From a virus (taxonomy: Duplodnaviria > Heunggongvirae > Uroviricota > Caudoviricetes): a stretch of 39,032 nucleotides of DNA. The notes under the pieces were generated by a model. The model ran no database searches, was not told the origin of the DNA, and was given only the letters and a program-made list of their open reading frames with translations. Positions 7,558 to 36,954 of the stretch are shown here, piece after piece. Where the stretch lies: the IMG/VR virus record IMGVR_UViG_649989948_000008, positions 1 to 39,032 of that record; one strand, 5' to 3'. Made by a program: the position numbers and the translations under genes. Every line of letters starts with the position of its first letter. The first letter of the stretch is position 1.

Positions 7558-7606
7558 GTTTTCTTATCCTTTTAAACAAATTGTTTTCTTAATAAGATAA
7601 TTTCGA

Positions 7607-7632
7607 TAAAAAAGGCGTCCAACTGGACGCCT
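7607..7632 (-). terminator. rho-independent terminator after the SPFH gene
   Basis: Stem AGGCGTCC/GGACGCCT with a 4-nt loop, followed by a T-run on the minus strand. Confidence 0.6.
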
Positions 7633-7648
7633 GAACTTTTTAGGGGAG

Positions 7649-8479
7649 TTATTTCACTGTAATGAAAGGAGTGTTAGCCCCTTGAGTCATGTACTGCGGT
7701 AACTGGCCATTCCATTTATTGATGGCTTCCAGTTCCATAACGTTCGGGTTTTGACGCAGAGCTTCACCGCGCAGACGAATGGCGTCTGCTTCTGCTTGCG
7801 CACGAGCACGGATAGCATCAGCTTCACCATTAGCCTGTTCACGTAGCATATTCGCCTCAGCTTTACGTTGTTCAACTTCCTGCTGACGTTGCAGAGTACG
7901 CTGGTTAGCCGTTACTTTGGCGTTGATAGATTCAATGACGGTTTTTGGGTAATCAGGCTTTCCAACCCATGACAGGCTCAGTACCTCAATACCAACCGGA
8001 GACATCTCTTTCTGAATGTCTTTCAGTGCGTTGTCCAGCAATTGCGCCTTACCACCGTCGATAAATGAGTCAGTGGTCATACGGCTGGCCAAACGGTTTA
8101 GAGAGTCGGCAATTTTCTGACGCAGATCTGATTCGGTGATATCGTCTACGCCTTTGCGATAGGTCTGGAACACCGTCGTTACCTTGTCACGATTAACCAG
8201 ATACGCAACGCCAATTTTGTGACCAATAGCAGTACCGTCACTCATCTGGAATGTGAACGGTTCGTCGTAGGTCTTCATTTGTTTGAAGGTCGGGAATACG
8301 TAAAGTTCGGTGTTAAGACCTGTCCATTGGCGACCAACGCCAACCACTTCACCGATCCCTTTGTCTTCACCTAATTTGTTTACTTTGATGCCAACGTATC
8401 CAGGCTCCACGCGATCACAGCCAGTAAGACCCATTGTGCAAATAGCCGCCAGAGCAACTGCAAGTAAACCTTTCTTCAT
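7649..8479 (-). CDS. SPFH/band-7 (prohibitin/flotillin-like) domain lipoprotein
   Basis: Signal peptide with lipobox LTGC; C-terminal Ala/Glu/Arg-rich helix QRKAEANMLREQANGEADAIRARAQAEADAIRLRGEA typical of band-7 proteins. Confidence 0.65.
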   Translation of the reverse strand: MKKGLLAVALAAICTMGLTGCDRVEPGYVGIKVNKLGEDKGIGEVVGVGRQWTGLNTELYVFPTFKQMKTYDEPFTFQMSDGTAIGHKIGVAYLVNRDKVTTVFQTYRKGVDDITESDLRQKIADSLNRLASRMTTDSFIDGGKAQLLDNALKDIQKEMSPVGIEVLSLSWVGKPDYPKTVIESINAKVTANQRTLQRQQEVEQRKAEANMLREQANGEADAIRARAQAEADAIRLRGEALRQNPNVMELEAINKWNGQLPQYMTQGANTPFITVK

Positions 8480-8482
8480 TAC

Positions 8483-8683
8483 TTATTTCCCCTTTGCTTT
8501 GATTAATGAGTTGATAAACTTACGACCAGCAATAAGACCGATTACAGGAGCACCAAAACCAACGATAACTCCAAACATGACGGCTAAATCACTCTTGGTA
8601 GAAATCAGCGACGGAACCAGTAAACCGTAGATGAGAGCCACTGAAACGCCTGTGGCTACTGCCAATAGATAGATTTTGATCAT
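8483..8683 (-). CDS. small two-helix membrane protein, possible partner of the SPFH protein
   Basis: 66 aa, two hydrophobic segments; 3-bp gap to the SPFH gene; conserved start context. Confidence 0.45.
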   Translation of the reverse strand: MIKIYLLAVATGVSVALIYGLLVPSLISTKSDLAVMFGVIVGFGAPVIGLIAGRKFINSLIKAKGK

Positions 8684-8746
8684 GTGTTTTCCTATGTGGT
8701 TGTTATGCGAAAATAATAAGTAAGTACTTATATATTTTCAAGAGAT

Positions 8747-8772
8747 AAAAAAGGCGTCCTGTGGACGCCTTG
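8747..8772 (-). terminator. rho-independent terminator after the RecA-like gene
   Basis: Stem AAGGCGTCC/GGACGCCTT followed by a T-run on the minus strand. Confidence 0.6.
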
Positions 8773-8775
8773 TGT

Positions 8776-11115
8776 TTACTCTTCTACTGACTCGGTGGGG
8801 TTGTCTTTTGCTCTTCGGTCGTCGATTGCCTGCAAAGCCGCAATGATTTCAGCCAGTGGCTTCTCCCGATACATCTCGACGATCTGCGATTTGGTGTATT
8901 TCTTGTCACCAATTTCAACTCGCCCGCTGGCGTTCTTTGGCAGGTATCCTTCTTCCAGCATGTACTCGACGAGCGATTCGATAACGTCGAGGCCACGAGT
9001 AGGATCGAAGTAGAATTTCCAGGTGCATTTGCCATACGGTGGTGCAACTTTGTTTTTGATGCATTCTGCGCCTACGTCCTGGCCGATCTTCTCTTTACCA
9101 TCCTTCATCACCGATGCACCAAGACGGATACGTACAGAAGCGTAGAACTTCGGTGAATCTCCACCTGGCGACGTAGTAGGGTCGCCAAACATTACACCGA
9201 TTTTTGTGCGAACCTGATTCAAGAAGATGATGCAGGCGTTGTATTTGCGTGCCCACAAAGCCAGAGTAGGGAAGTTCGCACTCGTCGCACGAGCCAGTGC
9301 CGTATTGTCGTTCATGTTTAGCTGATCTTTGTCTTTGGCTGTGCCTTCAGCCATCTTTTCGAACTTCTCGGCTTTGGAGTTCGGAACCATAGACGCAAGA
9401 GAGTCAGCCACGATACAGATAGGTGCTGATTCGGGGATAAGCTCTTCATCACGAACCAATTTAAGTATTGTGCCGATCAACTCTACAGAGTCTTCGAAGG
9501 TATCTGGCTGCTTGTATACCCACTGACCGTCATCCTCATCTGCGTTCAGGCCATTGGCTACAGCCAGGCCAACGTCAAAACTGTTTTCATGATCGAGGAA
9601 TACCGCCAGACCATCTTGTTTTTGAGCGGAGATCATCGCTGCTGTTGCAAGGAATGTGTTGTGGCTGATAATCCCGTTAGACCAGAAAGAGTGTGTTTCC
9701 GGCATCGCTACGTCGAACGTTGGTGCTTCACCTTCCTCAATAGCCACGACTTCGTCGTAGAACAAGTTAGAGCCAATTACCGCTGCCAGTTGTGCAAACA
9801 GATGCTCGTTAAAACGATTCTTTCTGCCAATGAAGGAGACATAGATTTCTCGCAGTTTGTCTATTCCGACACGATCGCCGCGGCCAATAACGTGGTCTAC
9901 CAGAGCGTAGTCTTCACGGGTGGTCTTGGTGAGCGACTCGTAGAGTGATTTCACTAAGCCGCTGATGTGCGGAACATAGCCTGAGTAAGTGCGGTCAAAA
10001 CCAATGTCCCGTTTGGTTGCCACTGATAAACGTGCCGGAGATTCGAAACCAATCGTTGACAGAAAAAGGTCGTAATTAGAGCCACTGAATGACAGCCGGT
10101 AATATGTATTTTCATAACCCGCGACGTGTTTTTCAGAGATAGTTGACGTAATCCCCAGATTCAGGAGCATGAGGCGAATTTGCTGTAGCAGCAGCCCACT
10201 CGCGCTCACAACCTCAATGCAGCGACCATCATTGACGTGGCATTCCAGCTCAAAGTAGCCGCGAAGGAATGCAATTTGAGCCTCGCTATTGGCGCGACGC
10301 ACACTCAACGGAACCTGCTTGCCAGCAGCTTTCTCATACTCCAGACCATATTCTTTAAAAAGCAGCGAACGCACCTCTTTGCTAAACAGCACATGGTCTT
10401 CCGAGCCGTTATGTTTTCTCGTAACTGGCATCTTGTCTGATACCAGCGAAATGAGGCGGTAGTACTCATCCTTGATGAAAGGATCTGTGTTAGAAAAATT
10501 CACTGAATTTTCAGAGGCCACGTATCCGTCAGCAATTAAATAGCCCATCAGTTTTGCGATATTGGCATCCAGGTGCTGATCGCCGAATTGATGTGTGCCA
10601 ACCATTGAAGGAATCGTGTCGCCTACACTGATTTTTTCAGCATGTCGCCAGACGACATTACCTAAGTCGTCAACCACACGGATTGGGTGACGGAACGTAG
10701 CCTCGATATAACCGCCTGATGCCAGCTTAATACGCTTGAATTTGCGACGGTTGTTCCATGTCAGGTGTGAGGTCTTCTCTATCACGCCATTTTCATTGAT
10801 GAGTCCAACGTTATGCTCTACATCGCGAGTAGTGCATGTCGCTTTGTACCCTTCAATCTCAAACAACTCTTTCACTGTTACCATTCCACGCTCCGTCAGC
10901 AGCATGGTGTCTGCGGTAACACATTTCCCCGCGCTTGGTGGCCCGAATACTTCTACGATACGACCACATGGGAAACCGCCATCGTAACGACCGGAAATCG
11001 CTTTGTTTAACGGAGGAAAGCCTGTGTCAATCCAATGAGTTACTTTCTGAATTTCGTCGTTGCTACCGATTTTCTTTTTCAGAGCAAGTGCCAGTGCGGA
11101 TTTTCCTTTTGCCAT
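8776..11115 (-). CDS. recA: RecA-family recombinase interrupted by an intein (779-aa precursor, ~357-aa predicted mature protein)
   Basis: Exteins resemble RecA: GRIVEVFGPPSAGK|..|TFLA (Walker A), VFLDHENSFD, VMFGDPTTSPGGDSPKFYASVRIRLG; ATG with AGGAG RBS. Confidence 0.8.
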   Translation of the reverse strand: MAKGKSALALALKKKIGSNDEIQKVTHWIDTGFPPLNKAISGRYDGGFPCGRIVEVFGPPSAGKCVTADTMLLTERGMVTVKELFEIEGYKATCTTRDVEHNVGLINENGVIEKTSHLTWNNRRKFKRIKLASGGYIEATFRHPIRVVDDLGNVVWRHAEKISVGDTIPSMVGTHQFGDQHLDANIAKLMGYLIADGYVASENSVNFSNTDPFIKDEYYRLISLVSDKMPVTRKHNGSEDHVLFSKEVRSLLFKEYGLEYEKAAGKQVPLSVRRANSEAQIAFLRGYFELECHVNDGRCIEVVSASGLLLQQIRLMLLNLGITSTISEKHVAGYENTYYRLSFSGSNYDLFLSTIGFESPARLSVATKRDIGFDRTYSGYVPHISGLVKSLYESLTKTTREDYALVDHVIGRGDRVGIDKLREIYVSFIGRKNRFNEHLFAQLAAVIGSNLFYDEVVAIEEGEAPTFDVAMPETHSFWSNGIISHNTFLATAAMISAQKQDGLAVFLDHENSFDVGLAVANGLNADEDDGQWVYKQPDTFEDSVELIGTILKLVRDEELIPESAPICIVADSLASMVPNSKAEKFEKMAEGTAKDKDQLNMNDNTALARATSANFPTLALWARKYNACIIFLNQVRTKIGVMFGDPTTSPGGDSPKFYASVRIRLGASVMKDGKEKIGQDVGAECIKNKVAPPYGKCTWKFYFDPTRGLDVIESLVEYMLEEGYLPKNASGRVEIGDKKYTKSQIVEMYREKPLAEIIAALQAIDDRRAKDNPTESVEE
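9658..10923 (-). mobile_element. intein with LAGLIDADG homing-endonuclease domain (422 aa) inserted in the RecA P-loop
   Basis: Starts with Cys (CVTADTMLL), TxxH block (ATFRH), LAGLIDADG blocks (LMGYLIADGYV, FLRGYFELECHV), ends ...ISHN followed by Thr; junction codons checked by hand. Confidence 0.8.
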
Positions 11116-11117
11116 GA

Positions 11118-12328: not shown

Positions 12329-12343
12329 CGGTACATTCCTTCC

Positions 12344-12372
12344 AAAAAGTAAGGCGTCCGTAGACGCCTTAC
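12344..12372 (-). terminator. terminator hairpin between the SSB-like and exonuclease genes
   Basis: Stem GTAAGGCGTC/GACGCCTTAC with loop CGTA and a T-run on the minus strand. Confidence 0.55.
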
Positions 12373-12388
12373 TGGTCACGTAATGGGA

Positions 12389-13417: not shown

Positions 13418-13534
13418 GTGTTTCTCCTTGTTGTGATTTGGCCGATGGCGCTATGCGCGTTGGGCTTTCGTTCATTCGTGGCTCTTTCGAGCTGTTAAAT
13501 GATAGATCAGTACTTACTTATTATCTATCAAAAA

Positions 13535-14091: not shown

Positions 14092-15261
14092 TCACGACTT
14101 AATAGTTTCTGCTACGTCGGCTAATATCGCTTCTAGTCGTTCTCCCTCTTCAGGTCTGAAGTAAAGAATGTTGGGGTTAAACCCGTAAAAGACAGTAACG
14201 TCAAGGTCTGGAAGATACTCCTTCCTGCCGACCAAATCGGATGGCTTGTTTTTGTTGTTAAACAATGCCGTTGCCCGGCTACCACACGTCAGCACATAGG
14301 TCGGGCGCACCAGATTGATCTCTTCACGCATAAAGTCGGTGAACTGGCCGATCTCGTCTTTGGTGTAGTCCTTTTCTTTGTCTTTCACCTTTTTGCAAAC
14401 GCCTGTGACATAGAGATCGCCCATGCGCAAATCCCCAGCCGTCAACAGCTTGGCCTTAAAATCGTCGTATCCGTTCTCCATAAAGTAACCGGTTCGAGCA
14501 TCATTGCCGTTCGCATTGTCCAGAATGATCATGATTTTCGGCTTAATACCAATGCTGGGGCGGATTAGTTCATCACCTAAGCCCATTTCAGCCGCCATCC
14601 GCGTCATGAGTACGTTAATCTCAGCCGAACGTTTGGGGTTCATCTCAAACGGACGTGACGCTTTAACTGCGTCTATGACAAGGTTTCCCATCAATTCAGC
14701 CTGGTCGCGTAGGCGCTCTGGATCAGTTGCTGGCAGACTACCTGGCTCGATGGATGCAAACGCCCCTACTTTTTGCAGCGATTCGCGCACTCGACTATTA
14801 CAGGCACGTTTCTCGACAGCTTCTTCGAATTGCGCCAGTGACTCGAATTTGCCGCCAACTTTTTCTCGCGCTCTCATGATGGCTTGGCAGCCATTCTCAG
14901 AACACCCTTTCACAGCAGAGAAGGGCGCATACAGCACCTGGCTGCCATCTTCAAGCGTGCGGATCTCGATTCGGTTAGATGACACGTTAACGTCTGGTGG
15001 CAATACGCGAATACCATAGGTCAGCGCATCTTTAACCAGCCCCTGGTGTTTATCTTCGCCAAGAATAGTGAGAGCAGCAGCGAAGAACTCCGCGGGATAA
15101 TGAGTTTTCAACCACATAGATTGATAACTGATTAAGGAGTAAGCAACAGAGTGTGATTTGTTGAAGGCATACGCGCCGGATTTCTCAAACATATTCCAGA
15201 TTTCTTCGGCTCGTTCGTGCGTCAGGCCATTGCTCTCTTCGACAACACCGGTAATTTTCAT
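14092..15261 (-). CDS. dnaE: DNA polymerase III alpha-like (DnaE), C-terminal fragment of a split gene
   Basis: Begins within the conserved region AYAFNKSHSVAYSLISYQSMWLKTHYPAEFFAA; its ATG overlaps the HNH gene stop (ATGA). Confidence 0.75.
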   Translation of the reverse strand: MKITGVVEESNGLTHERAEEIWNMFEKSGAYAFNKSHSVAYSLISYQSMWLKTHYPAEFFAAALTILGEDKHQGLVKDALTYGIRVLPPDVNVSSNRIEIRTLEDGSQVLYAPFSAVKGCSENGCQAIMRAREKVGGKFESLAQFEEAVEKRACNSRVRESLQKVGAFASIEPGSLPATDPERLRDQAELMGNLVIDAVKASRPFEMNPKRSAEINVLMTRMAAEMGLGDELIRPSIGIKPKIMIILDNANGNDARTGYFMENGYDDFKAKLLTAGDLRMGDLYVTGVCKKVKDKEKDYTKDEIGQFTDFMREEINLVRPTYVLTCGSRATALFNNKNKPSDLVGRKEYLPDLDVTVFYGFNPNILYFRPEEGERLEAILADVAETIKS

Positions 15262-15992
15262 GCAGTCACCTCATCAATCTTCACGAACTCATACCCATTG
15301 GAGGCCAGCCAGTTCCGTTGGCGCTCCCAGCTCCATATCTCTTCACGCATTTCACTATGCAGGCGAATGTGGGCGTCTTCTGGAAGTGCTACAAGATTCC
15401 CAGGGGCGTTATCTATCGTATCGCGGTTAATATGGTGGACATGTTCATCGTCACGTAGCTCCCGACCGAGACGTTCTTTCGCTATCAATCGATGAACGTA
15501 TTCGTATTGCGAAACGCCATTGTTACCAACCAGCTGCATCATGTAGCCGTTGGTTTTTACGATGATGCCACCTTTGTAGTTGTTCGCTTCTTCTCCGATC
15601 TTTCCGCGTTTGGCAGCCGCCAGCTTTTCCTTCGTCTCCGCGCGGATTGTTCTGCCGGTTAGCTTTTTCGAAACGGTGGCCACTCGCTCATCGATATCAG
15701 CACGCAGACCGGCATTCCACGAGGTTTTCCCATACATAGGGTTGCCAGTGCCAGTCCGGGCTTCGGAGAGACGCTTCATACGTTCGTCATTATTTTTGTT
15801 TTTGCCACGATTCCAGGCTGGGGTAGCGGAGATCCGCGCGCTTCCGCGCCTGATCCCCCATTTGGCTAATAAGCGGTCAATATTTGCCTTGCTGCAACCA
15901 GCTTCGGCGGCAATGTCTTCTTTTCTCATCAGGTCAACCATGTAACGCTGACGTAACCATTCTTCTGTGATTTTGTACTTCGTACTCGGCAT
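15258..15992 (-). CDS. HNH homing endonuclease inserted between the two DnaE fragments
   Basis: HNH motif EHVHHINRDTIDNAPGNLVALPEDAHIRLH, NUMOD-like repeats and an N-terminal HTH-like segment; preceded by its own AAACAAATTGTTTTCTTA motif. Confidence 0.75.
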   Translation of the reverse strand: MPSTKYKITEEWLRQRYMVDLMRKEDIAAEAGCSKANIDRLLAKWGIRRGSARISATPAWNRGKNKNNDERMKRLSEARTGTGNPMYGKTSWNAGLRADIDERVATVSKKLTGRTIRAETKEKLAAAKRGKIGEEANNYKGGIIVKTNGYMMQLVGNNGVSQYEYVHRLIAKERLGRELRDDEHVHHINRDTIDNAPGNLVALPEDAHIRLHSEMREEIWSWERQRNWLASNGYEFVKIDEVTA

Positions 15993-16040
15993 TTCTAAGA
16001 CTCACTAAACAAATTGTTTTCTTATCTTATAAATTAATTC

Positions 16041-18404
16041 TCAAATATCGAAGCTCGTTATGTCGGCATTTATTGCCATTGCTTCGGCATAAGTGCGACG
16101 CTCACCATCAGCACAAAGTAGGCGTGCTGCTTTATGGATTTTTCTCGTAGAACCATCATCCAGTGACACTGTCACCCAGCCTTCCTCCGCTCGCTTAATG
16201 AAGTCGCCGCCAATGGATTTCATTTTCTCCATATCTTTTTTCCCGATCGCTTTCCTGACCGAGTCTGCTTCCGCCATTGAGAACCCCGCCAAGATTCGCG
16301 TAGCAGCCATGATCTGTTCCTGATAAATCAGAACTCCGTTTGTGTCGCGAGAGATGTCGTCCAGCATTGGGTGTAAGGAATGTGGGGCCATGAAGCCTTT
16401 GGCCACGGACACATAATCGTCCAACATGCCGGATTGAATCGGGCCAGGTCGGAAGAGCGCAGTTGTAGCGACGACCGTTTTAAAGCTCATTGGCTCAATT
16501 CCACCACCTAAATCTTTAAGCAGCTTGCGCATTGGGCCTGATTCAAGCTGGAATACGCCCTGTGTATACCCTGCAGCAAAACCATCCAGCACCTTGCGAT
16601 CTTCAAGAGAAATGGCATCAAGATTGATATCTTCACCTGTGTTCTCTTTTATGTAGCGTTTTGCACTATCGAGCAAATCGAGAGTTGCCAGGCCAAGCAC
16701 GTCCAGCTTAATTAGGCCCATAGCCTCGCAGTAACGCTTGTCAAATGCGATACAACGCGCGTCACCACGGCGTTCAACCGGTGTACGTTCTGTCAGAGGA
16801 ACACCTGCTACGATCATCCCTGCCGCATGTCTACCAAAGCCACGCATAAGGCTTTGTAACTTGCAGGCTGCATTGAATGCATCAGGATATTTTGTTGCGT
16901 ATTTGTCGAGACTTGCCAGTTGTTCGCGCAGCTCTTCCAATGGAAGGCTATCATCCTCGACGTTCTTCAGTTCTTTTGATACCGCCATATCTGCGGACTC
17001 CACACCATAAATACGAGCGGTGTCACGTAGTGCAGAGGCTGCGCCCAGGTAGGTGAAGTTCGGAATGCCTGCAACGTAATCTTCGCCGTAGCGTTCATTC
17101 AGATACTCGATCACCTCATGGCGACGTGCCTGGCTGAAGTCCAAGTCCGCATCCGGCAAGTCGAGACGCTCAGGGTTGATGAAACGCTCAAACAGAAGAC
17201 CGTGACGGATTGGGTCGACGTTGGTTATGCCTATGCACCACGCCACCAGAGAACCGGCAGAGGAACCACGACCAGGCCCAACGGGAATGCCAGTTTCACG
17301 ACTATGATTCATCAGATCGCGCACCATCAGGAAGTAACCACAGAATCCCAGGCGAGTCAGCGTGTCCATTTCGTACTTTAGCCGCTCAACATAAACCCTG
17401 TTCTCAGAAGCAGGTGGTGTGTAGCCAAACTCTTTTGTGGTAAGACGTTTACGCAGCCCTGCAACAGCCAGTTTCATAAGCGTTGCAGGCTCGTCGTCTG
17501 CCATCTTGGGCAGTGCTGGTGGCAATTCATGCCAGCGCCATGTGCAGGCATCGATAATGGAGTCCTGCGTTGTTGAGGCCATTGCAGCTGTTACTGGCAC
17601 ATCCATGCGAACGGAGAAGGCTTTAAGCGCCTCAAGGAGATGGCGACGACCATTGATGGCGTTATCTCGCTGGTGGGGGATACGCAGACGATGCGGCTGG
17701 TCGATTTTTATGTTGTTCGTAACCATGTGCGCAATGTCTTTAATGTCAGCATCGTCGATCGATTCGTAATAAGCGGGATAGAACGCTACTGGCTCTATTT
17801 TCAGTGCGCTGGCGACTTTCATCGCCCGGACGTTAATCTGGTCGTAGAATGGGGTAGGGTGCGGATAGACCACACTATAGAAGTTGTCTTTTCCACCCGC
17901 TGTAATCAGTGTGCTTATGATTTTTGCAAAATCGTTGCGTTGGAACACGCTACCGATGTCGGAAGTAAGCAGGATGATGTTGCCTTTGGCATATGTAGAA
18001 ACCAACTGTTCGAGCGAGAGACGCGGTACAAAGTAGAACTGTTCTCGTGTGTTGGCCACCGTCATTAGTTCGCAGATGTCGCGATATCCTTGCTCATTTT
18101 TAATTAGAGCGGTAAACGAGTAGTTACGTCCCCGCTCTAATGATTCCATACATCTCATAGATTCTTTAGCAAGTTTAGCCCGGTGCTCGTATGTGGGATC
18201 ATCAACAATGTTTAGTTTCACACCACAAATAACCGCCATGTCGTCACCAGCGGCACGTTGTAGTGGAATAACGCTCGCAATATTCATGCTATCTGCTGAA
18301 ATTACAGCGGTGTAGCCAGCTTCTCTGGCAATCTTCACCGCGTTTTCTGCTTTTAGAGCCGACTCCCCAAGTGAGAAGTCAGTTCGAACCATCAGTGCCT
18401 TCAT
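16041..18404 (-). CDS. dnaE: DNA polymerase III alpha-like (DnaE), N-terminal fragment (PHP and polymerase core)
   Basis: GRGSSAGSLVAWCIGITNVDPIRHGLLFERFINPERLDLPDADLDF and RHAAGMIVAG match the Pol III alpha core; ends just after RKAIGKKDMEKMKSIGGDFIKRAEEG. Confidence 0.8.
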   Translation of the reverse strand: MKALMVRTDFSLGESALKAENAVKIAREAGYTAVISADSMNIASVIPLQRAAGDDMAVICGVKLNIVDDPTYEHRAKLAKESMRCMESLERGRNYSFTALIKNEQGYRDICELMTVANTREQFYFVPRLSLEQLVSTYAKGNIILLTSDIGSVFQRNDFAKIISTLITAGGKDNFYSVVYPHPTPFYDQINVRAMKVASALKIEPVAFYPAYYESIDDADIKDIAHMVTNNIKIDQPHRLRIPHQRDNAINGRRHLLEALKAFSVRMDVPVTAAMASTTQDSIIDACTWRWHELPPALPKMADDEPATLMKLAVAGLRKRLTTKEFGYTPPASENRVYVERLKYEMDTLTRLGFCGYFLMVRDLMNHSRETGIPVGPGRGSSAGSLVAWCIGITNVDPIRHGLLFERFINPERLDLPDADLDFSQARRHEVIEYLNERYGEDYVAGIPNFTYLGAASALRDTARIYGVESADMAVSKELKNVEDDSLPLEELREQLASLDKYATKYPDAFNAACKLQSLMRGFGRHAAGMIVAGVPLTERTPVERRGDARCIAFDKRYCEAMGLIKLDVLGLATLDLLDSAKRYIKENTGEDINLDAISLEDRKVLDGFAAGYTQGVFQLESGPMRKLLKDLGGGIEPMSFKTVVATTALFRPGPIQSGMLDDYVSVAKGFMAPHSLHPMLDDISRDTNGVLIYQEQIMAATRILAGFSMAEADSVRKAIGKKDMEKMKSIGGDFIKRAEEGWVTVSLDDGSTRKIHKAARLLCADGERRTYAEAMAINADITSFDI

Positions 18405-28423: not shown

Positions 28424-28586
28424 CCTTAATCTCCTTCAGGGTGTTGGTTATTTCTACAATGCGATAAATACGACCGCGTCTTTCTATAACACCGCTTTTA
28501 ATGTAGTCATTGATGCAACTGGACATCACCACAATACCTATGAAAAAACCAACTGCTAAAAATGCAATCATCCAGCCGAGCATCAT
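28407..28586 (-). CDS. small membrane protein (59 aa, below track cutoff)
   Basis: Hand-translated MMLGWMIAFLAVGFFIGIVVMSSC...; its ATG overlaps the ligase stop (ATGA). Confidence 0.35.
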   Translation of the reverse strand: MMLGWMIAFLAVGFFIGIVVMSSCINDYIKSGVIERRGRIYRIVEITNTLKEIKDDRIK

Positions 28587-29905
28587 TCTTTATCTCCGAT
28601 TCGATCTTCTGTATCGCGTAAGCAACGCGGCCATTTCAGTCGTGGGTGGCGTAAGCTGCCGTCCGGTGTTTTCTCGTGACAATGAACCTCGACAATACGA
28701 CCACGGTACTTCTCTTTGTTGTTCCAGATCTCATCCAGATATTTATGCTTAATGCCGCTCGCACGAACGATGACGCCGTTTTCAAGACGAATAACAATTT
28801 TTCCAAGTGTGTTGGCAAAACCAGAGTCCGGGTCGCCCGGCTCAAAGTCGATAATTTCACCATCTTCTGAATCTTCGTCTTTTAACTTCCACCAGCTGCG
28901 GGTACGTTTAAACTCGTAAACAGAGTTCGGATCTTTGCCCATCTCCCCTTCTTCGTTATCGTCCAGGCGTTTCATGAAGCGTTCGATGAAGTCTTCGTGG
29001 CTATGGATGATATAGAACGGATGCAGGTGAATGTCTTGTGTGTAGCCTTCACTGCGATCGTTTTTGAACAACGCCACCAGCATAGCCAGGCGCTCTTTCA
29101 GCTTCATACCTGTCTTTGCATACTCTTTGGATTTAGCCTGTGCTCGCCATTCCGGTAGGAAGAAGTCGAAAACATGATAAATAGCGCCAATTGCCTGCAC
29201 GTTCTTTTTGCGCAATGCAGATACGGACTGGTTAAATGAACCGGCAGTTCCTTCACCATCGAAGAAGATGTGTTTGTGGCCTGAAAGTTTGCCTAATTCG
29301 AGCATTGCTGGCTTTAGGTGATCGAGAGACGTGATTGGATTACCAGTACGAGAAAGGAAGTTAACCTCTTCCTCGTCAACAATAACCTCGCAAATTACTC
29401 GCAAACCATCGAGCTTAAGACTGCCAATCATCGGCCATTTTGCTTTAGGATTTGGCTTGAAGGGGTATTTGTCGCCTTTTTCTTTATACGGTGACGCCAG
29501 CTGCACCTCGAATTTCGGAATGGGATTTTCAAAAACCTTGTTGCATAGGCTAATCCCAACACCTGCTTTCGGGTCTTTTAAGAGGAAACGACGGAACACG
29601 TCCTGCCCATCGGCGCACATTGACGCCACGATAGACTCAACAGCTGCTATTGCTGCGTTCCCCGTTAGCTCGCGAGAGGCCAGCTTATTCAGTACATCAA
29701 TGGCTTTTTCGTCACTTGGGATGGACTCACTAAGCGGCTCTGCCACTTTGTATTTCTTTACCCCAAAACGGATGAAAGGGTTGAGCATCAATGAAACCAT
29801 GCTTTGCTCGAAGTCATCCATGTTGGCCAATGCCTCTTTTTTTGCATTGGTTCCCATAGCTTTCATTTCGTCCAGCTTATGCTTAAGTGCGATCAACTTT
29901 TTCAT
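28583..29905 (-). CDS. ATP-dependent DNA ligase
   Basis: Nucleotidyltransferase motif I KLDGLR, motif III FFDGEGT, motif IV EGEMGK, motif V WWKLK, then an OB-fold-sized C-terminus. Confidence 0.7.
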   Translation of the reverse strand: MKKLIALKHKLDEMKAMGTNAKKEALANMDDFEQSMVSLMLNPFIRFGVKKYKVAEPLSESIPSDEKAIDVLNKLASRELTGNAAIAAVESIVASMCADGQDVFRRFLLKDPKAGVGISLCNKVFENPIPKFEVQLASPYKEKGDKYPFKPNPKAKWPMIGSLKLDGLRVICEVIVDEEEVNFLSRTGNPITSLDHLKPAMLELGKLSGHKHIFFDGEGTAGSFNQSVSALRKKNVQAIGAIYHVFDFFLPEWRAQAKSKEYAKTGMKLKERLAMLVALFKNDRSEGYTQDIHLHPFYIIHSHEDFIERFMKRLDDNEEGEMGKDPNSVYEFKRTRSWWKLKDEDSEDGEIIDFEPGDPDSGFANTLGKIVIRLENGVIVRASGIKHKYLDEIWNNKEKYRGRIVEVHCHEKTPDGSLRHPRLKWPRCLRDTEDRIGDKE

Positions 29906-30384
29906 TGTTGTTTTACCTCCATATGTTGATCGATTTGCTCATGTGTTTCTTTTGTTGTTTCTTCAAGCAACGCCGCATACACGTCAGTGATCGCTGTTTG
30001 TGATGTGGTGCTCTTCTTAACCATGCTATTAATCGTTACACTGTCACGTTTTCGTTTTAAAGTTCTGGCTTGTTTATTCCGTTCTTCAACCTCCTTAATG
30101 AGCACGGTCATATCTTCGAAATACAGAGATTCTCCTTTACGAATCTCTTCAACCATCATTTTTAACGCCTTGCATTTGCCTGCTTTGATAGCGGTTGCGC
30201 ACGACTGGAATGAAGTTCGAGGAAGACGGTTTTCTTTGAAGGCAAGAATGGTGTGCTGGCAAACGGAGTAGCTGCAATATGCCGACTCACCGTTTATCTT
30301 TACTTCCTCACAACGAAGTGAATAACCATTATTTCCTGAAATAGAGGGGATTTTTGACAAATCAGCTTTCACAACTACCGCCAT
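29902..30384 (-). CDS. hypothetical protein (160 aa)
   Basis: ATG start; stop overlaps the ligase start (ATGA). Confidence 0.45.
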   Translation of the reverse strand: MAVVVKADLSKIPSISGNNGYSLRCEEVKINGESAYCSYSVCQHTILAFKENRLPRTSFQSCATAIKAGKCKALKMMVEEIRKGESLYFEDMTVLIKEVEERNKQARTLKRKRDSVTINSMVKKSTTSQTAITDVYAALLEETTKETHEQIDQHMEVKQQ

Positions 30385-30439
30385 AAATAATCTTGTACTT
30401 ACCTATCGTTATTTGCGTAAAAAACGACGCGCGGAGAGA

Positions 30440-31216
30440 TTACCAACTTCCCCAGCTAATCATCTTGCGCTGATTGCTTTCTAAGCGATAGGGGGCAAGA
30501 AGCTCTGTGATATGATTGGTGGCGTATGATTTAGCCTCTTGCTCTATCATCGGTAATTCGTTAGCAATCCTGACCACCTTCCAAGCAAATTCCGCCATTA
30601 CGCCATCACATGCCTTCCCAGCATCAATAACGATATGCACCAGATCCAACTGGCTTTTGCACATGTCGCAAAGAGACGCATACTCACTCTCTCTGATTAC
30701 ATTTACGGCATCATTAGCCCCTTTATTAAGCAAGACTTCCAACAGATTTTTCGGGGTAACGAAATCTGCTTTCAGAGATAATGTCTTTTCACCACTTATC
30801 GAACGCAAGTACTCTTCGTAGTTATTCTTCATCAAACCGCTGCTGCGCATTGCTAGAACTGCTTCTTGAATGGCCGCTTCAATAGTTTCGTCGTTTGAAA
30901 GACAAAAAACGGTATTTGTGTAGATCACTCTGCCATCAAGCCATGCTCCAACCTGCACTTTAAGACTGAGCGGGTTTTCTTTGCTAATAAAAACAACTAA
31001 TGCAGAACGTCGTGCACAAGAAGGTTCACCCCATACGTGTAACTTAACCTTCAGATAAGGTAGCCCCGGTAGCGGGATCTCGACCAAACGAGTGGCGATA
31101 TGATCCATTGCTGTTTTTACCGCTTTTTCAATGATGTCTAGTCGATTGCTCTCGCTGATTTCTAAACCAGTTTTATCAATGATGTCGCAGGCTAATTTCT
31201 GAATTTCGTCTTTCAT
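30440..31216 (-). CDS. hypothetical protein (258 aa)
   Basis: ATG start preceded by an ATAAGTA-n6-TACTTAT palindrome. Confidence 0.5.
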   Translation of the reverse strand: MKDEIQKLACDIIDKTGLEISESNRLDIIEKAVKTAMDHIATRLVEIPLPGLPYLKVKLHVWGEPSCARRSALVVFISKENPLSLKVQVGAWLDGRVIYTNTVFCLSNDETIEAAIQEAVLAMRSSGLMKNNYEEYLRSISGEKTLSLKADFVTPKNLLEVLLNKGANDAVNVIRESEYASLCDMCKSQLDLVHIVIDAGKACDGVMAEFAWKVVRIANELPMIEQEAKSYATNHITELLAPYRLESNQRKMISWGSW

Positions 31217-31291
31217 ACCAACTCCTAGCTAACAGATGAAAGTATTCTCACAGAAAGATAAGTAATCGTCTACTTATTTTAAAGGTGATTG

Positions 31292-32473
31292 TTATGATAG
31301 AGCCTTAATGCCCAAAACCTTGCTTTGCAACTCCAACTGTTTGGTATACGGTTTTGCCCGATAATAGGCTTTGATAATTTGTTCTGGCGTTGCACCGCCC
31401 GGGTCGAGTCCTTCCTCACCCAAACACGCAACTTTGACATTAAGACCGATACTGGTCAGTCGCCTGGCTGCGGCCATCGTGTTGCGTATAGCTTGCTTTT
31501 CACTATCCCACATCATGATCACATTACGTAATCCACGCGCCTTGAGCGTCAGGAACGCGCCTAACTGATCTTCTGCATCCTGAGTGGTGTTACCAGATAG
31601 ATGCATCCCGAACGTTCCTATTGGTTCCACGTAATCACGTAATGTTTCTTCGTCAAAAATAGCTCGTTTAACCCCCATAACATCGAACGCCCCCTCACAG
31701 ACAACTACAGTCTGTTTGCCGACTGCATTATGGCCGTTGTAGAGAAACTTACCTGAAGCTGGAAGTTGCATAGGAAAGAGGTAGCGGCGTTCTGCTGTAC
31801 CGGTAATGTCTCGTCCCTGAAATGTCTTCATTACCCCATCCAGATCGTAAACCGGTATCAGTATTCGCATATCGAATATCTGTCCTTTAACCTGATCTGT
31901 ATACGGATCTACATAGGCGTGCTTGCCTTCGACGCAGTATCGTAGGTCAAAATACTTTGCCATTTCAGGCGATATGTTTCGTTCAACCAGATAGTCTGGA
32001 AGACGGCCATCTATAGGAAGCTCGTAATGACGAGGGAGTGCAACTGGCTCCTCTAACTCGACTGTGCTTGCAAGCACTAGCTCTTCTTTCTTTGGTGCCC
32101 ACCCCTGGGAAAGAAGGGCGTTCTGCACATATTCCTCGAACTGTCGTCGTGATTTGCCGCTGTAGTGCTTGAGGAAGACCAGCTTATTGAACTGAATCTC
32201 TTCGGGATGATCACCAGCGAAGCATTTACCGACGCCACTGGTCAGATTGAAATATACCTTCCAGTTGGAGCTGCCGCATACCGGACACTCCTTGATATTC
32301 ACTTCACGACCGCGAGTACTCACGCCTCCACGTCGATAAACGATACCTTCAGTATCCAACCATTGTTCAAAATCTAATTCGGTAATTAGCTCTTTCAGCT
32401 CGCTCACGATAATTCCACTTTTAACAGGCAATATTGTGACCAACCTAAATGTTGATATAACATAAAGGCTCAT
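31292..32473 (-). CDS. DNA primase (zinc-ribbon plus TOPRIM)
   Basis: Zinc ribbon CPVCGSSNWKVYFNLTSGVGKCFAGDH and TOPRIM acidic motif VVVCEGAFDVMGV. Start placed at the ATG at 32473, which has the conserved start context (track ORF begins at 32545). Confidence 0.65.
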   Translation of the reverse strand: MSLYVISTFRLVTILPVKSGIIVSELKELITELDFEQWLDTEGIVYRRGGVSTRGREVNIKECPVCGSSNWKVYFNLTSGVGKCFAGDHPEEIQFNKLVFLKHYSGKSRRQFEEYVQNALLSQGWAPKKEELVLASTVELEEPVALPRHYELPIDGRLPDYLVERNISPEMAKYFDLRYCVEGKHAYVDPYTDQVKGQIFDMRILIPVYDLDGVMKTFQGRDITGTAERRYLFPMQLPASGKFLYNGHNAVGKQTVVVCEGAFDVMGVKRAIFDEETLRDYVEPIGTFGMHLSGNTTQDAEDQLGAFLTLKARGLRNVIMMWDSEKQAIRNTMAAARRLTSIGLNVKVACLGEEGLDPGGATPEQIIKAYYRAKPYTKQLELQSKVLGIKALS

Positions 32474-32554
32474 GTGTTTTTCTTTTGTGGTTTGGCAAAA
32501 GAAAAGTTGTTTCACCAATGAATCAAGCGTGGAGGTGTTCTCCACGCTTATTTT

Positions 32555-33895
32555 TTAGGTAACGTCTAAGATTCGCTCAATGAAGCGCATTTGTTCGAGG
32601 TTTTGTTTAACGCGAATGCTGATCCCTCCCTGCTGGTTACGTGAACCGGCAAAGTAGAGACGAGCCTCTCCTTTCGCTTCTTCTTCTTCGGTTTTGTTGA
32701 TCGTTATTACCAGGTCAGCAATACGTACTTTTTCGATGTTGTCGGCAGCGTGCATCATTGTGGCAACTTCTGACGCGCCACCTTCACGGTTTGTCTGCGA
32801 TGCCGTGATCCCAGCAACGTTATGCTTGTCATAAAGAGCACGTAAATCGGTGTAGATACTACGAATGTTGGCGCGATCATCACGAAGGTCATAACTGGCA
32901 CGCATCAAATCTGCGTAGTCGACAACAACCATGTCAGGTACCATGCCGTTGGCTTTCATGCTGTTAAGCATACGGTCCAGATCTGCCGGTGACATACTTC
33001 CTGACGGACGCTCAACCACCCACAAACTACCAATCCCCTTCGTGGCTCCCAACTCTGCCAACTTACGATGAACCTCATCGCGCCGTTCCACCAGCTTGGA
33101 CATTTCTGTCTCCGACAATCTTGCATCAAAACGGTCGGATAAAATGGTGGTGTGAACCTCCAGCGAGAGATACAGAACATTGTAGCCAGCAAGCGTTGCG
33201 TTTATGGAAAACTCACCCATTGCGGTCGATTTACCGGATTTAGCGAACCCCATGAAGAGCACCATTTCGCGCTTTGCCCAGCCTTTTTGGTACAGCAACC
33301 TATCGAGAAGAGGGAGTCCAGTTGTAATACTGTTTGGTACATACTCCTCTGAAGCCTCATATTCACGCGCTTTCAATCGCTCACTTGCGGAGGTGTAGTA
33401 GTCATAGATTCCGGTCGCTTCGTTCGATCCAATCTGCTGAACCCTGGCCATGATTGCCATCGCCCCCTGAAAGTCGCCTTTCTCTTTCAGTTCAGCAGCC
33501 TTAATCAGAGCATCATCAAACGCTACACTTTTTGCGAAGGTTGATACCTGGTCAACCATGTACGAGGTATCGGACAATTTTTCTGCAAGAATGCGCTTAA
33601 ACGCAGCAACAACATCGGCGAATAGTTCCTCACGGATAGTCTTATCGCGTTTCGCACGCTTAAGCATATCCAGAATTGCAGATGAAGAGGGCGCGCTCTT
33701 GTACATACGGTAATAGCCCGAAACCATATTAACCAATATGGCATTGGCCGCATTGGCAAACTGGCTAGGCACAACCAGATCTCCCGCACGAGTAAGAAAC
33801 TCGTGATCACGACAAAAATATGCCGTCAGTCTGTTCTGGAAATCTTCATCAAACTCTTCGGACAGCCCGCGTCCTGTATGGCAAAGTTCGGTCAT
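32555..33895 (-). CDS. dnaB: DnaB-family replicative helicase
   Basis: Walker A GFAKSGKST, Walker B VVVDYADLM, and ITASQTNREG resembling the DnaB SQLNR motif. Confidence 0.75.
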   Translation of the reverse strand: MTELCHTGRGLSEEFDEDFQNRLTAYFCRDHEFLTRAGDLVVPSQFANAANAILVNMVSGYYRMYKSAPSSSAILDMLKRAKRDKTIREELFADVVAAFKRILAEKLSDTSYMVDQVSTFAKSVAFDDALIKAAELKEKGDFQGAMAIMARVQQIGSNEATGIYDYYTSASERLKAREYEASEEYVPNSITTGLPLLDRLLYQKGWAKREMVLFMGFAKSGKSTAMGEFSINATLAGYNVLYLSLEVHTTILSDRFDARLSETEMSKLVERRDEVHRKLAELGATKGIGSLWVVERPSGSMSPADLDRMLNSMKANGMVPDMVVVDYADLMRASYDLRDDRANIRSIYTDLRALYDKHNVAGITASQTNREGGASEVATMMHAADNIEKVRIADLVITINKTEEEEAKGEARLYFAGSRNQQGGISIRVKQNLEQMRFIERILDVT

Positions 33896-33938
33896 GTGCT
33901 TTCCTTTGTTTTTTAAACAAATTGTTTTCTAGTGTTAG

Positions 33939-34679
33939 TTAATTAGATAGGGGATCAATAAACCGCCGTGCTTCTTCCAGTTCTTCTGGAAAGTGGGCGG
34001 AAATAAGGCGCTCTGGAACGATTTCCATTAGCCAGATAGCGGAGAAAATTGCGCGTATGCGCTTGCTGCGAGGGATGGTGCGCAAACGCTCCAGAATCCA
34101 CTCAAAATAGCTTTCCTGAATCGGGTTGAACTGCATGTCTCCCATATGCTTAAAGCTAACCAGAGAGTCATCCAGACGGGTTGTTGCGCGTCTGGCTAAT
34201 TTCTCTTCAAATATCTCAATCAGTTCTGGCTGCCACAAATGCTGTGGGCGCGGCAGCTTGTTCCACAGCCGTCGTGCAGCTGCGGAAAGAACGGTGGAGA
34301 TAAAGTAGTCGTATGAGCAGCAATAGCGATCCGCAAACTGGCGTGCTTTCCATAGCGACGTTTTATTGGCAGTCGACAACTCCTGATAAGGCAGGCGTTT
34401 TAACCCGGTGGTGAACGGAGCTGTTTCAAAGTGTTCGCGACCGTGCGTCAGCATGATATTTGAGTACTGACGTTTGTATGCCTCCGTAAAAAGACAGGTG
34501 GCCATGAGAGGATGCATGTCGCGGTAATCAAACCACTTCGTCTCGAAGAGTTCAGCCTCGTCTTTACAGCGCGACAAACCAATGTTTTCAGCGACCCACT
34601 TGTCCATAACAGCGGTATTCCACTCTGTCATGAAGTCGTACTGGTCGTTGTCGATGGTATCGAAAAAGATTTGGCTCAT
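33939..34679 (-). CDS. hypothetical protein upstream of the helicase (possible helicase-associated factor)
   Basis: ATG at 34679 with AGGTGA RBS (track ORF starts at a GTG at 34688); no motif recognised. Confidence 0.45.
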   Translation of the reverse strand: MSQIFFDTIDNDQYDFMTEWNTAVMDKWVAENIGLSRCKDEAELFETKWFDYRDMHPLMATCLFTEAYKRQYSNIMLTHGREHFETAPFTTGLKRLPYQELSTANKTSLWKARQFADRYCCSYDYFISTVLSAAARRLWNKLPRPQHLWQPELIEIFEEKLARRATTRLDDSLVSFKHMGDMQFNPIQESYFEWILERLRTIPRSKRIRAIFSAIWLMEIVPERLISAHFPEELEEARRFIDPLSN

Positions 34680-34961
34680 GTGGCTCACCTGGTAGGTAGT
34701 TACTTACTTATCACAATGAGCGGATGATAGCGACTGGTGGCAGTTTTTGGAAGTGGAAACGGAAGGGAGTTGTTCTGGTGGTGTCTTTTAAAAGACCTGC
34801 TTCCGTATATATTTAATAAGTTACTTATTATTTATATATACAGAAGCAGGCATAACTTGTCGTCTTAGACGCCCAGAAGCTCTACACTTTGAGCCTGTTA
34901 AATTGATTAAAAACTTATGTGTAAAATAGAACGCATTAGTCAGTAGCAAAGAGATGCAATA

Positions 34962-35729
34962 ATGGACGATTTATCGGTATACGCGAGATCATTGGATAAG
35001 GCTAAATACTATGTTTACTGTCTCTATGATACAGAAGACAAGATGAAAAGACCGTTTTACATAGGAAAAGGCAAATCGACTCGTTGTCTCGATCACATCA
35101 AGTATCCCGATGACTCTCCCAAATCCATGCGGATCAAAGAACTTTTGGCTAATAAAAAATTAGGCATAGATATACTTCGTCATGGTATGGATGAAACCAC
35201 AGCCAAACTTGTTGAGGCGACATGCATCGACCTTATGGGGGTCGGAGAGCTTACGAATAAGGTACGAGGAAGTGGTTCCATGATGGGCAGAATATCACTA
35301 GACGCCTACCATCACTTAGTGCTGCAAGAGGAAACTGAAATTGCTCCTGAGCACGCCGGTCTTGCCTTCCTGCTAAACAGCACCTACAAGTCAGGAATGT
35401 CCGCTCTGGCATTATATGAAGCTACGCGTGGCGTATGGGCAAAGGTTCCAAGAGACGAGAATCTCAAATATGCCTACGCTACATATGGTGGGCTGATAAT
35501 GGAAGTTTATCAGATTGAATGCTGGGTCAAAGCCGGCTCTCAGCAGTACTTTACAAGGGATATAGCTCTTGGCCCCGACACAAAACGTTATGAATTTGTT
35601 GGCAGAATAGCCGATGAGCATATTAGAAAACTGTATGTAGGCAAATTAATCAAGAAGCCACCAAGCTACGGTAGCCCTTTTGTGAAGGTTGGGGTGGTTA
35701 GGACTGAACATAGTGTTAGCGCGGCATAA
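34962..35729 (+). CDS. GIY-YIG nuclease-domain protein with uncharacterised C-terminal domain
   Basis: YYVYCLYD ... PFYIGKGKSTRCLDH (GIY and YIG elements, Arg), later LVEATCID (Glu) and LTNKVRG (Asn); one of the few plus-strand genes. Confidence 0.6.
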   Translation: MDDLSVYARSLDKAKYYVYCLYDTEDKMKRPFYIGKGKSTRCLDHIKYPDDSPKSMRIKELLANKKLGIDILRHGMDETTAKLVEATCIDLMGVGELTNKVRGSGSMMGRISLDAYHHLVLQEETEIAPEHAGLAFLLNSTYKSGMSALALYEATRGVWAKVPRDENLKYAYATYGGLIMEVYQIECWVKAGSQQYFTRDIALGPDTKRYEFVGRIADEHIRKLYVGKLIKKPPSYGSPFVKVGVVRTEHSVSAA

Positions 35730-35745
35730 AGCTGACACTGTAGTT

Positions 35746-35783
35746 ATGCATTGGCGCAATGTACGCGCCAATGCATGATTTTT
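35746..35783 (+). terminator. hairpin terminator between the convergent GIY-YIG and ParB-like genes
   Basis: Perfect 12-bp arms ATGCATTGGCGC/GCGCCAATGCAT with a 7-nt loop, followed by TTTTT on the plus strand. Confidence 0.55.
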
Positions 35784-36141
35784 AACCTTTCTTCATCAAC
35801 TCTCGTTTGATTTCATCGGTACGCATCGTGACATCGGCAGCGGTGATCGCCTCATTCAATTTCACGATGTCCTCGATTTCCTGCGGTGACTTCTCTGCCA
35901 GATGGAAAATGGCTGCTCGAATCACGTCAGAACGAGTGAACTTCTCGAAGCGAGGGATGAACTTCATCATCTCCAGCAGTTCGAAGTATTCGTCCTCCAG
36001 TGACATTGTGCGGCTTTTAATTTTCTCTTTGCCACGAGTCGGGCGTCCCTGTGGTCTGACTGGTTGGCGCAAAGGAGTTGTGTTCTTAGCCGGTGCATCA
36101 GGCTCTTTGCGCTTTGCTAGGTCACCCATTTTCATGGACAT
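35782..36141 (-). CDS. small partition-associated DNA-binding protein (ParB/ParG-like)
   Basis: 119-aa basic protein immediately downstream of parA and translationally coupled (TAATG); identity inferred from position and size only. Confidence 0.45.
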   Translation of the reverse strand: MSMKMGDLAKRKEPDAPAKNTTPLRQPVRPQGRPTRGKEKIKSRTMSLEDEYFELLEMMKFIPRFEKFTRSDVIRAAIFHLAEKSPQEIEDIVKLNEAITAADVTMRTDEIKRELMKKG

Positions 36142-36809
36142 TATTCTTCTTCCTCCAGACTCAACAGATAATCTACAAATTCTTCAAACTCGGCTTCAGC
36201 CTTTTTGTCGCGCTCGCTACCGGTCATTTCGAAGATAGAACGACCAGACTCTTCCGCATCATCGTAGACGTTGCGGTTATATAGATTGACTGGCGCAGAC
36301 TCGATGCCAAACGTCTCGACAATCTCTTTAGCCGCCAGAATGCGAGACACTTGTGATGGCAAAGCCGGGCACTGGTTCATGACCGCGCGGACCTTCACTT
36401 TATCGTTTACATTACGAACATTGTCGATAATAGGATCGATGTCACGCAGAGATTTCAAATCACGACGCTTAGGACGAAGCGGGATAATGATAACGTCGGC
36501 CATCAGCATCGCTTGTCGCTGAATTTCGGAGTCAAAGCCACCAGCATCTACCACTACAAACTCAGCTCTACCCTGAAGCGATTTTAGGTGCTTAATGATG
36601 TCATCCTGAACGTATGCAAAAGGAATCAGCTCAAGGTCTTCGTTCTGTCGACGGTCTTCACACCAGCTTGTTGTCGTGCGCTGAATATCTATATCAGTGA
36701 TATAAACCTTCTTCTTCTTTTTGACTTTCAGGCAAACGGCAATTTGCTGGGCAACAGTGGATTTGCCAGGCCCGCCCTTTGTGCCGCCAACCACAAAGAT
36801 CTTGGTCAT
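36141..36809 (-). CDS. parA: ParA/Soj-family partition ATPase (small, type Ib-like)
   Basis: Deviant Walker A GGTKGGPGKST at the N-terminus; 222 aa; preceded by the AAACAAcTTGTTTTCTTA motif. Confidence 0.75.
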   Translation of the reverse strand: MTKIFVVGGTKGGPGKSTVAQQIAVCLKVKKKKKVYITDIDIQRTTTSWCEDRRQNEDLELIPFAYVQDDIIKHLKSLQGRAEFVVVDAGGFDSEIQRQAMLMADVIIIPLRPKRRDLKSLRDIDPIIDNVRNVNDKVKVRAVMNQCPALPSQVSRILAAKEIVETFGIESAPVNLYNRNVYDDAEESGRSIFEMTGSERDKKAEAEFEEFVDYLLSLEEEE

Positions 36810-36954
36810 TGGAGAGTTCCCTTTGCGTCTATTATTATTGTCTGAAACAACTTGTTTTCTTATATGTGATATAGCCTAAATGCCTACGGCTGCTGTGTAA
36901 AGGTTAAATGGTAGGTGCTGCCTTAGAATTTTTAGGCGAGAATCAATGGCTGTT

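Follow-up and report, generated by a model that had tools for sequence, protein, structure and literature searches.

A dispersed palindrome at the heads of transcription units in SSU5-like phage-plasmids: a conserved and apparently undescribed family of probable operators

We describe here a short palindrome, which we call the class A motif, that stands before five genes in a 39,032-nucleotide (nt) stretch of tailed-phage DNA (Caudoviricetes; IMG/VR record IMGVR_UViG_649989948_000008, positions 1 to 39,032; the whole of this stretch is referred to below as the window). The motif is a real and conserved one, probably an operator family and apparently undescribed hitherto, in a clinically widespread group of phage-plasmids, and the five sites of the window are a sample of a conserved, dispersed set of about twenty per SSU5-like phage-plasmid. 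We propose, with a probability of roughly 0.6, that the palindrome is the operator for a dimeric protein encoded by the element itself, which would hold the units of the lytic cycle silent in the plasmid-prophage.

Judged by its sequence and by the annotation of Escherichia phage Cyrano (OV696614), the window comes from an SSU5-like phage-plasmid and is its minus-strand arm for replication, recombination and partition. Region 28000-39032 is 100% identical to the E. coli plasmid NZ_CP146657.1, 97% identical to Cyrano and 81% identical to Salmonella phage SSU5, and it is matched by 781 plasmid records from Klebsiella, Escherichia, Enterobacter, Salmonella and other genera. Phage-plasmids of the SSU5/pHCM2 type are common in E. 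coli, Klebsiella, Salmonella and Enterobacter, and some of the 781 records carry resistance genes, for instance CMY-2. Control of lysis and lysogeny in this group is essentially uncharacterised: a literature search for promoters, repressors and operators of SSU5 turned up no account of how it is regulated, and none of four motif strings occurs in the papers searched. Dispersed operators are already familiar among phages; a defined operator of about 20 sites names the promoters concerned, offers a bait for the regulator and allows a test of the link between partition and lytic control.

Results

The class A motif in the window and in its relatives

All five copies named by the original prediction are present where it had placed them, and the 6-bp inverted repeat around a single central base that it had seen in each was found to be AAACAA-N-TTGTTT, exact in four copies and degenerate in one. 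They do lie close upstream of minus-strand start codons, at a measured distance of 14-35 nt, and the identities it had given to the downstream genes were upheld by domain matches and annotation (Table 1). Read in gene (minus) orientation the five sites are TAAGAAAACAAnTTGTTTA; on the plus strand, sites 1 and 2 (7574-7591 and 16007-16024) share the sequence AAACAAATTGTTTTCTTA, site 4 (33915-33930) is AAACAAATTGTTTTCT and site 5 (36845-36862) is AAACAACTTGTTTTCTTA. The degenerate site 3, before the gene of the CobT-like protein (plus strand 22044-22059, AAACAAATTATTTACT), has two mismatches to the 16-mer AAACAANTTGTTTTCT and one to the 13-bp core, with its better arm on the gene-proximal side, whereas its SSU5 orthologue is the perfect GAAAACAAATTGTTTAA. 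The 16-mer with up to three mismatches matches the window 13 times against 2.74 expected, a number that none of 100 shuffles reaches, and the 13-bp core with at most one mismatch occurs at 5 sites, where 100 shuffles give 0.13 on average and never more than 1; at this threshold of one mismatch the window has no copies beyond the five.

A motif scan over relatives showed that the motif is not confined to the element of the window. The core AAACAANTTGTTT, counted with at most one mismatch and compared with shuffles, has 18 sites in Cyrano (shuffle mean 0.5), 20 in the first 100 kb of SSU5 (0.2) and 20 in the Klebsiella oxytoca plasmid pCAV1015-111 (0.2), whose helicase is 68% identical; it is also the most enriched 5+5 palindrome in both Cyrano and SSU5. 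The sites are intergenic and stand at the same positions in these three genomes. Besides the genes known from the window they head terS (as a tandem pair), nrdB, a gene of a TciA-like protein and a run of small genes of unknown function (93-98.5 kb in Cyrano), so that a regulon of five replication and partition genes, as the window alone had suggested, is too narrow a description of a palindrome that heads about 18-20 transcription units per genome. An Acinetobacter phage-plasmid with a 37% identical helicase, a Massilia contig and three metagenome bins contained either no sites or sites at chance level only. In an exact scan of IMG/VR, the perfect 17-mer was repeated within one contig solely in SSU5-like contigs of 78-110 kb; the other matches were single, and those inspected lay in AT-rich genomes and looked like chance, two of them being apparently coding.

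A phylogenetic footprint of the region upstream of the helicase gene (34 distinct sequences) gave 100% conservation at positions 1 to 6 on either side of the centre and 98% at positions 7 and 8, with 53% for the centre base itself and 67% for the upstream flank from -30 to -11. The motif is unchanged even where the helicase is only 68% identical, and the parA site is kept in all 6 loci that have the parA partner gene.

Relation to promoters and expression in the lysogen

The motif had been proposed to be a shared promoter or operator class. It does behave as one functional, promoter-associated class, with conserved sequence, conserved position and phasing to -10 hexamers, but it is not a sigma-70 promoter in itself, and the 14-35 nt between palindrome and ATG are too short to hold both sigma-70 hexamers. 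Among 58 aligned sites, strong -10 hexamers start 25 +/- 1 nt upstream of the palindrome centre in 18 and 26 nt downstream of it in 7, against a chance expectation of about 0.5 sites per offset, and many of these phased hexamers are of the extended form TGnGATAAT. This phasing would place the centre of the palindrome near +14, between the -10 hexamer and the Shine-Dalgarno sequence, and in some cases, additionally or alternatively, near -38. Four pairs of sites are exactly 51 bp apart and bracket a GATAAT. In the window, the candidate extended -10 of the cobT unit (Table 1) would put the centre of its palindrome near +13 or +14.

Class A sites often follow terminators, which means that each unit must restart transcription there. 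In the window, site 1 stands directly after an intrinsic terminator, so that transcription has to restart between this terminator and the ATG of the DUF7238 gene. An identical core stands at the orthologous place in Cyrano, and the SSU5 counterpart lies upstream of the neighbouring DUF2591 gene, which there precedes the DUF7238 orthologue.

Expression values come from RNA sequencing of an uninduced LF82/Cyrano lysogen (supplementary table, PMC9928086). Genes that stand first behind a class A site lie at background, their median being 7.5 where that of the prophage is 9.8 (PMC9928086), with terS at 7.1, cobT at 7.8, CYRAN_58 at 5.7, nrdB at 12.9 and the helicase gene at 21, while the units with TGnGATAAT (CYRAN_101, 105, 106, 110 and 111) range from 6.7 to 25.5 (PMC9928086). 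The parA operon is exceptional in the lysogen, its values being 50, 89 and 55 (PMC9928086). Promoters with an extended -10 are expected to fire unaided and yet they are silent, which favours repression through the sole conserved element that overlaps them; we infer repression rather than activation at class A sites.

The alternative that we take most seriously, although we regard it as unlikely, is positive control. The palindrome and the conserved upstream flank (AATAACACC...) would together form a phage-specific middle or late promoter, at which an element-encoded activator or sigma-like factor recruits the host RNA polymerase, and the silence of the downstream genes in the lysogen would come from the absence of this factor. 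It would suit the many sites, including the five of the window, that have no usable -35, and the several that have no good -10, as well as the site pair at the head of the late terS operon, just upstream of which is encoded the 88-amino-acid (aa) CYRAN_123, a protein annotated as DNA-binding and 75% conserved in the K. oxytoca relative. In most cases, however, the palindrome is placed behind the -10 and over the region where transcription is expected to start, a position that belongs to a repressor and not to an activator, and units with an extended -10 need no activator but are silent all the same. The annotations of Cyrano, SSU5 and the K. oxytoca plasmid, in which not every protein was screened, name no gene for a sigma factor or an RNA polymerase; the same annotations, with the same limit, and a palindromic site used in both orientations speak against a promoter of the T7 or N4 type.

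Reading of the palindrome as DNA or as RNA

Alignment of the 58 sites extends the motif to an imperfect palindrome of 17 bp, GAAAACAA-N-TTGTTTTC, in which one arm, on either side, is usually the better one. The arms are conserved as sequence and not as a paired stem, variants such as AAACAAGTTGGTT and AAATAATTTGTTT having no compensating change, and the sites are found in both orientations. Folding of the five leaders gave -2.3 to -6 kcal/mol with structures that differ from site to site and insignificant z-scores in 4 of 5, and a search of Rfam returned tRNAs only, with no match for the motif leaders. Conserved arms around a free centre, uncompensated variants, the use of both orientations and the weakness of the hairpins together indicate that the site is probably read by a dimeric protein on double-stranded DNA.

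These results bear on the possibility, in our view a very slight one, that the motif works at the 5' end of the mRNA, as the target of a translational repressor or as an element of mRNA stability, with a factor of the FljA family or one like RegA. The sites usually stand 0-25 nt before the Shine-Dalgarno sequence and sometimes abut it (TTGTTTAAGGAG), and the element encodes a full-length FljA-family protein (PF03614, 1e-80), FljA proteins being reported to block translation of fliC mRNA (PMC2652032). Against it stand the weak and inconsistent hairpins, with mostly insignificant z-scores and no Rfam match, the want of compensatory variation, and the copies at -38 or in reverse orientation, which would fall outside the mRNA leader.

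The FljA-family gene deserves mention in its own right. It lies outside the window (Cyrano 100780-101301, minus strand), its product has a weak Hfq-like match in the C-terminal half, and it is kept in SSU5 and in the K. oxytoca plasmid, with no tblastn match in the Acinetobacter relative. The protein may act on host flagellin or on phage mRNAs; the E. coli fliC leader was inspected for a link to the motif and is without a class A palindrome.

Candidate binding proteins

The helix-turn-helix (HTH) regulator encoded at 22586-22972, one of the proteins that the original prediction had considered for binding the motif, is unlikely in this role because its distribution across genomes does not match that of the motif. 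It has no match in the first 100 kb of SSU5 (the last 3.3 kb lay outside the search), where the motif is kept, and it is present in the Acinetobacter relative, where the motif is absent; its own upstream region has a different palindrome, GGTAAGcaCTTACC. Searches of Pfam and PHROGs with nine candidate regulators and eight genes that follow class A sites gave no DNA-binding assignment except a weak HTH_19 match for this same regulator. The proteins expressed in the lysogen and conserved in all three motif-bearing genomes are ParA, the 119-aa basic protein encoded after parA, RepA, UvsW, an ASCH protein and, with weak expression, the FljA-family protein.

The leading candidate, which we put forward tentatively, is the 119-aa protein; CYRAN_123 and CYRAN_37 are further candidates. 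The order of the locus is like that of type Ib partition systems, with the class A site 35 nt before the gene of a 222-aa ParA/MipZ-type ATPase and the gene of the 119-aa protein after it, and this order holds in 6 of 6 partner-bearing loci. Two blocks of the protein, KSRTMSxEDE and FTRSDVIRAAI, are invariant while the remainder falls to about 30-50% identity, and from its sequence these blocks (KSRTMSxEDE..., FTRSDVIRAAI) could be the possible core of a ribbon-helix-helix fold. The AlphaFold monomer model is poor (predicted local distance difference test, pLDDT, 63), with helices at 48-60 and 70-84 in a layout compatible with ribbon-helix-helix, and hhalign gave a weak match to a generic ribbon-helix-helix consensus (probability 35%, E-value 4e-4), comparisons with CopG and ParG sequences being negative or insignificant. 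An exhaustive HMMER search with the family yielded 18 representatives only, none of them annotated. The protein and the motif go together in 9 positive and 5 negative genomes or loci, a sample that is small (11 loci in the contig scan) and confounded by phylogeny.

The omega protein of pSM19035 and ParG of TP228 are ribbon-helix-helix partition adaptors that are also transcriptional repressors and bind arrays of short direct or inverted repeats. Should the ParA partner prove to be the binder, this type would become the closest analogue. The likeness lies in the small parA gene followed by the gene of a small basic protein and in a candidate binding site at the par promoter as well as at other promoters; the difference is that here the sites are single 17-bp palindromes, the ribbon-helix-helix fold is only suggested (the hhalign match of 35%) and the binder is a candidate. 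We think it possible, if rather doubtful, that the 119-aa protein is at once a ribbon-helix-helix partition adaptor and a global repressor that binds the roughly 20 dispersed GAAAACAA-N-TTGTTTTC sites. If this were so, plasmid segregation, the protein's own synthesis and the shutdown of lytic replication and packaging genes would all be tied together by one protein, much as omega of pSM19035 does its work, but here in command of the life cycle of a phage.

The vicinity of parA raises a further possibility, to which we give slightly less credence even than to a role in RNA, that the sites are primarily dispersed parS-like centromeres for the ParA system and their association with promoters is secondary. 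One site stands at the parA promoter in all enteric relatives, no other repeat array lies near it (34600-37100 holds only the single palindrome before parA), and the Acinetobacter relative (CP015484.1) has a different palindrome, TCTATATAGA, twice just upstream of parA and three times elsewhere, near 66 kb. A centromere would not, however, need the tight phasing to -10 hexamers and start codons, and known type Ib centromeres are arrays of repeats and not single sites spread over 100 kb.

The HNH cassette

One of the five sites, that before the HNH endonuclease gene, travels with a sporadic homing-endonuclease cassette. The cassette (15212-16161, 950 bp, with the HNH gene at 15258-15992, within 14092-18404) replaces 144 bp of the gene of DNA polymerase III alpha, which is intact in Cyrano and is split in the window into open reading frames (ORFs) of 787 and 389 aa. 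On one side its flank is only 83% identical to Cyrano, and it occurs in only 26 plasmid records, where the overlapping gene, if annotated, is dnaE; it has the look of intron-less homing by which the gene came to be in pieces. That the class A copies are nothing other than remnants of a mobile repeat or recombination cassette with no regulatory role is scarcely credible. The HNH cassette does carry its own copy, and in the cluster of small genes in Cyrano (93-98.5 kb) a unit of 60-70 bp is repeated that consists of a T-run, a GATAAT and the palindrome. At orthologous positions, however, none of the 12 core bases varies although the flanks diverge, and the sequence persists at 68% helicase identity.

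Discussion

Our proposal of a repressing operator can be set out as follows. A dimeric DNA-binding protein of the SSU5-like phage-plasmid would bind GAAAACAA-N-TTGTTTTC, an operator located where many short transcription units begin anew behind terminators; once bound, it would block the binding or the escape of RNA polymerase and thus keep the lytic-cycle units off in the plasmid state. The parA operon, with its weaker site, would be only partly repressed. As a sub-hypothesis, the repressor would be the 119-aa protein after parA, regulating its own operon, and the partial repression of parA would be explained in this case.

Several observations weigh against this proposal. The silence in the lysogen fits an activator-dependent promoter just as well. 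Sites before both terS, which is late and has a site pair, and parA, which belongs to lysogeny, are awkward for a single simple repressor. In a scan of the whole window for canonical sigma-70 promoters (-35/-10 consensus) no gene-strand match covers the five sites, and a clear TGnTAnnnT with the right offset is present at the cobT site alone, the remaining four sites having only weak -10-like sequences. The positions of transcription starts are inferred. The 119-aa protein, finally, has no match in Pfam, even at a lenient cut-off, nor in searches of PDB sequences and Foldseek.

Phage P1 offers a precedent. Its C1 operators are dispersed over a plasmid prophage of about 100 kb, at the promoters of many lytic and replication units including that of a DnaB-type helicase gene, and they are asymmetric sites of 17 bp. 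They appear to be the closest analogue of the way in which class A would work, with one short conserved site scattered over a phage-plasmid of about 100 kb and overlapping the promoters of units that are silent in the lysogen. The class A site differs in being a palindrome; no C1-like protein was identified in our analysis, and no sequence similarity to the P1 system was found here.

Other known systems share single features. Operators of the 434 and 16-3 type have the form ACAA-N(4-6)-TTGT, and like them the class A arms contain an inverted ACAA/TTGT that would be read by a dimer. Here, though, ACAA and TTGT are one base apart and the conserved arms extend outwards to GAAAAC, and with this spacing and these arms the geometry must differ from that of the 434 and 16-3 operators. 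The PeSL cassettes of T4-type phages, which Arbiol et al. are said to have described in 2010, are reportedly early sigma-70 promoters with a stem-loop, for which no palindromic operator downstream of the -10 is said to have been described. Class A units resemble them in the combination of a terminator-like hairpin and a promoter between small genes of a plastic region, and in a homing-endonuclease gene with its own copy; they differ in the palindrome downstream of the -10 and in belonging to a different phage family with a different sequence.

Table 1. Positions of class A sites, the genes behind them and other features in the window
Feature	Position	Strand	Description
Class A site 1	7572..7588	-	gene orientation GAAAACAATTTGTTTAA; 16 nt before the start (7557) of the 141-aa DUF7238 gene
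Class A site 2	16005..16021	-	GAAAACAATTTGTTTAG; 14 nt before the HNH endonuclease start (15992), inside the inserted HNH cassette
Class A site 3, degenerate	22042..22058	-	GTAAATAATTTGTTTTC; 20 nt before the CobT-like start (22024)
Class A site 4	33913..33929	-	GAAAACAATTTGTTTAA; 19 nt before the DnaB-like helicase start (33895)
Class A site 5	36843..36859	-	GAAAACAAGTTGTTTCA; 35 nt before the parA start (36809)
Downstream gene 1	7132..7557	-	141-aa DUF7238 protein
Downstream gene 2	15258..15992	-	free-standing HNH_3/NUMOD3 homing endonuclease; splits the Pol III alpha gene
Downstream gene 3	19916..22024	-	CobT-like protein; CobT and CobT_C domains
Downstream gene 4	32555..33895	-	helicase; "DNA Helicase" in Cyrano, DnaB-like in RefSeq plasmid records
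Downstream gene 5	36141..36809	-	222-aa ParA/MipZ-type ATPase
Gene of 119-aa basic protein after parA	35782..36141	-	orthologue of Cyrano CYRAN_29; candidate palindrome binder
Candidate extended -10, cobT unit	22069..22077	-	TGcTACATT; -25 +/- 1 offset class
Intrinsic terminator	7613..7632	-	AGGCGTCCAGTTGGACGCCT then TTTTTT; 21 nt upstream of site 1
Intrinsic terminator	36963..36980	-	about 100 nt upstream of site 5
ATAAGTA-NN-TACTTAT class	8716-8731 (perfect), 13506-13521, 19883-19898, 27746-27761, 34696-34711, 34816-34831
Third palindrome, GGTAAGcaCTTACC	22541-22554; half-sites at about 22364 and 22430		directly before the gene of the HTH regulator

Other palindromes and neighbouring features

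The next most enriched palindrome in Cyrano and SSU5 is ATAAGTA-NN-TACTTAT, which fills the spacer of the best sigma-70-like promoters of the window (8713-8741 and 13499-13527). It resembles an operator that belongs to another regulator, and in Cyrano structural genes are among those that it precedes. Over the window as a whole, matches to the sigma-70 consensus are fewer than in dinucleotide shuffles (15 vs 24.8 and 12 vs 31.8). The third palindrome, GGTAAGcaCTTACC, may be the HTH regulator's own operator, and its extended form TAGGTAAGnnCTTACCTA occurs 4-5 times in SSU5. Between a plus-strand ORF and the neighbouring 249-aa gene there is a long inverted repeat (34796-34850), CCTGCTTCCGTATATAT...ATATATACAGAAGCAGG, centred on a class B-like AATAAGTAACTTATTA.

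In the Acinetobacter relative CP015484.1 another palindrome, TAAGCGCTTA, occurs about 13 times, and one class A-like site, AAAACAAAATGTTTA, stands in the divergent region of parA, with conservation in A. geminorum. Behind the pair of class A sites that precedes terS in Cyrano (55-134) come a GC-rich hairpin and a T-run (gagcgcatggacgcgctc tgtgtgtttt), only about 20 nt ahead of the gene, which could be an attenuator or a target of antitermination where the late operon begins.

Three tRNA genes stand in a row at 26750-26993 (minus strand), and the Cyrano record has Ser, Thr and Asn tRNAs in the corresponding region, which is among the most expressed parts of the prophage in the lysogen RNA sequencing. 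At about residues 73-486 the RecA/UvsX-like protein of 779 aa (8776-11115, minus strand) is interrupted by an intein with a LAGLIDADG endonuclease domain; its SSU5 orthologue has only 358 aa.

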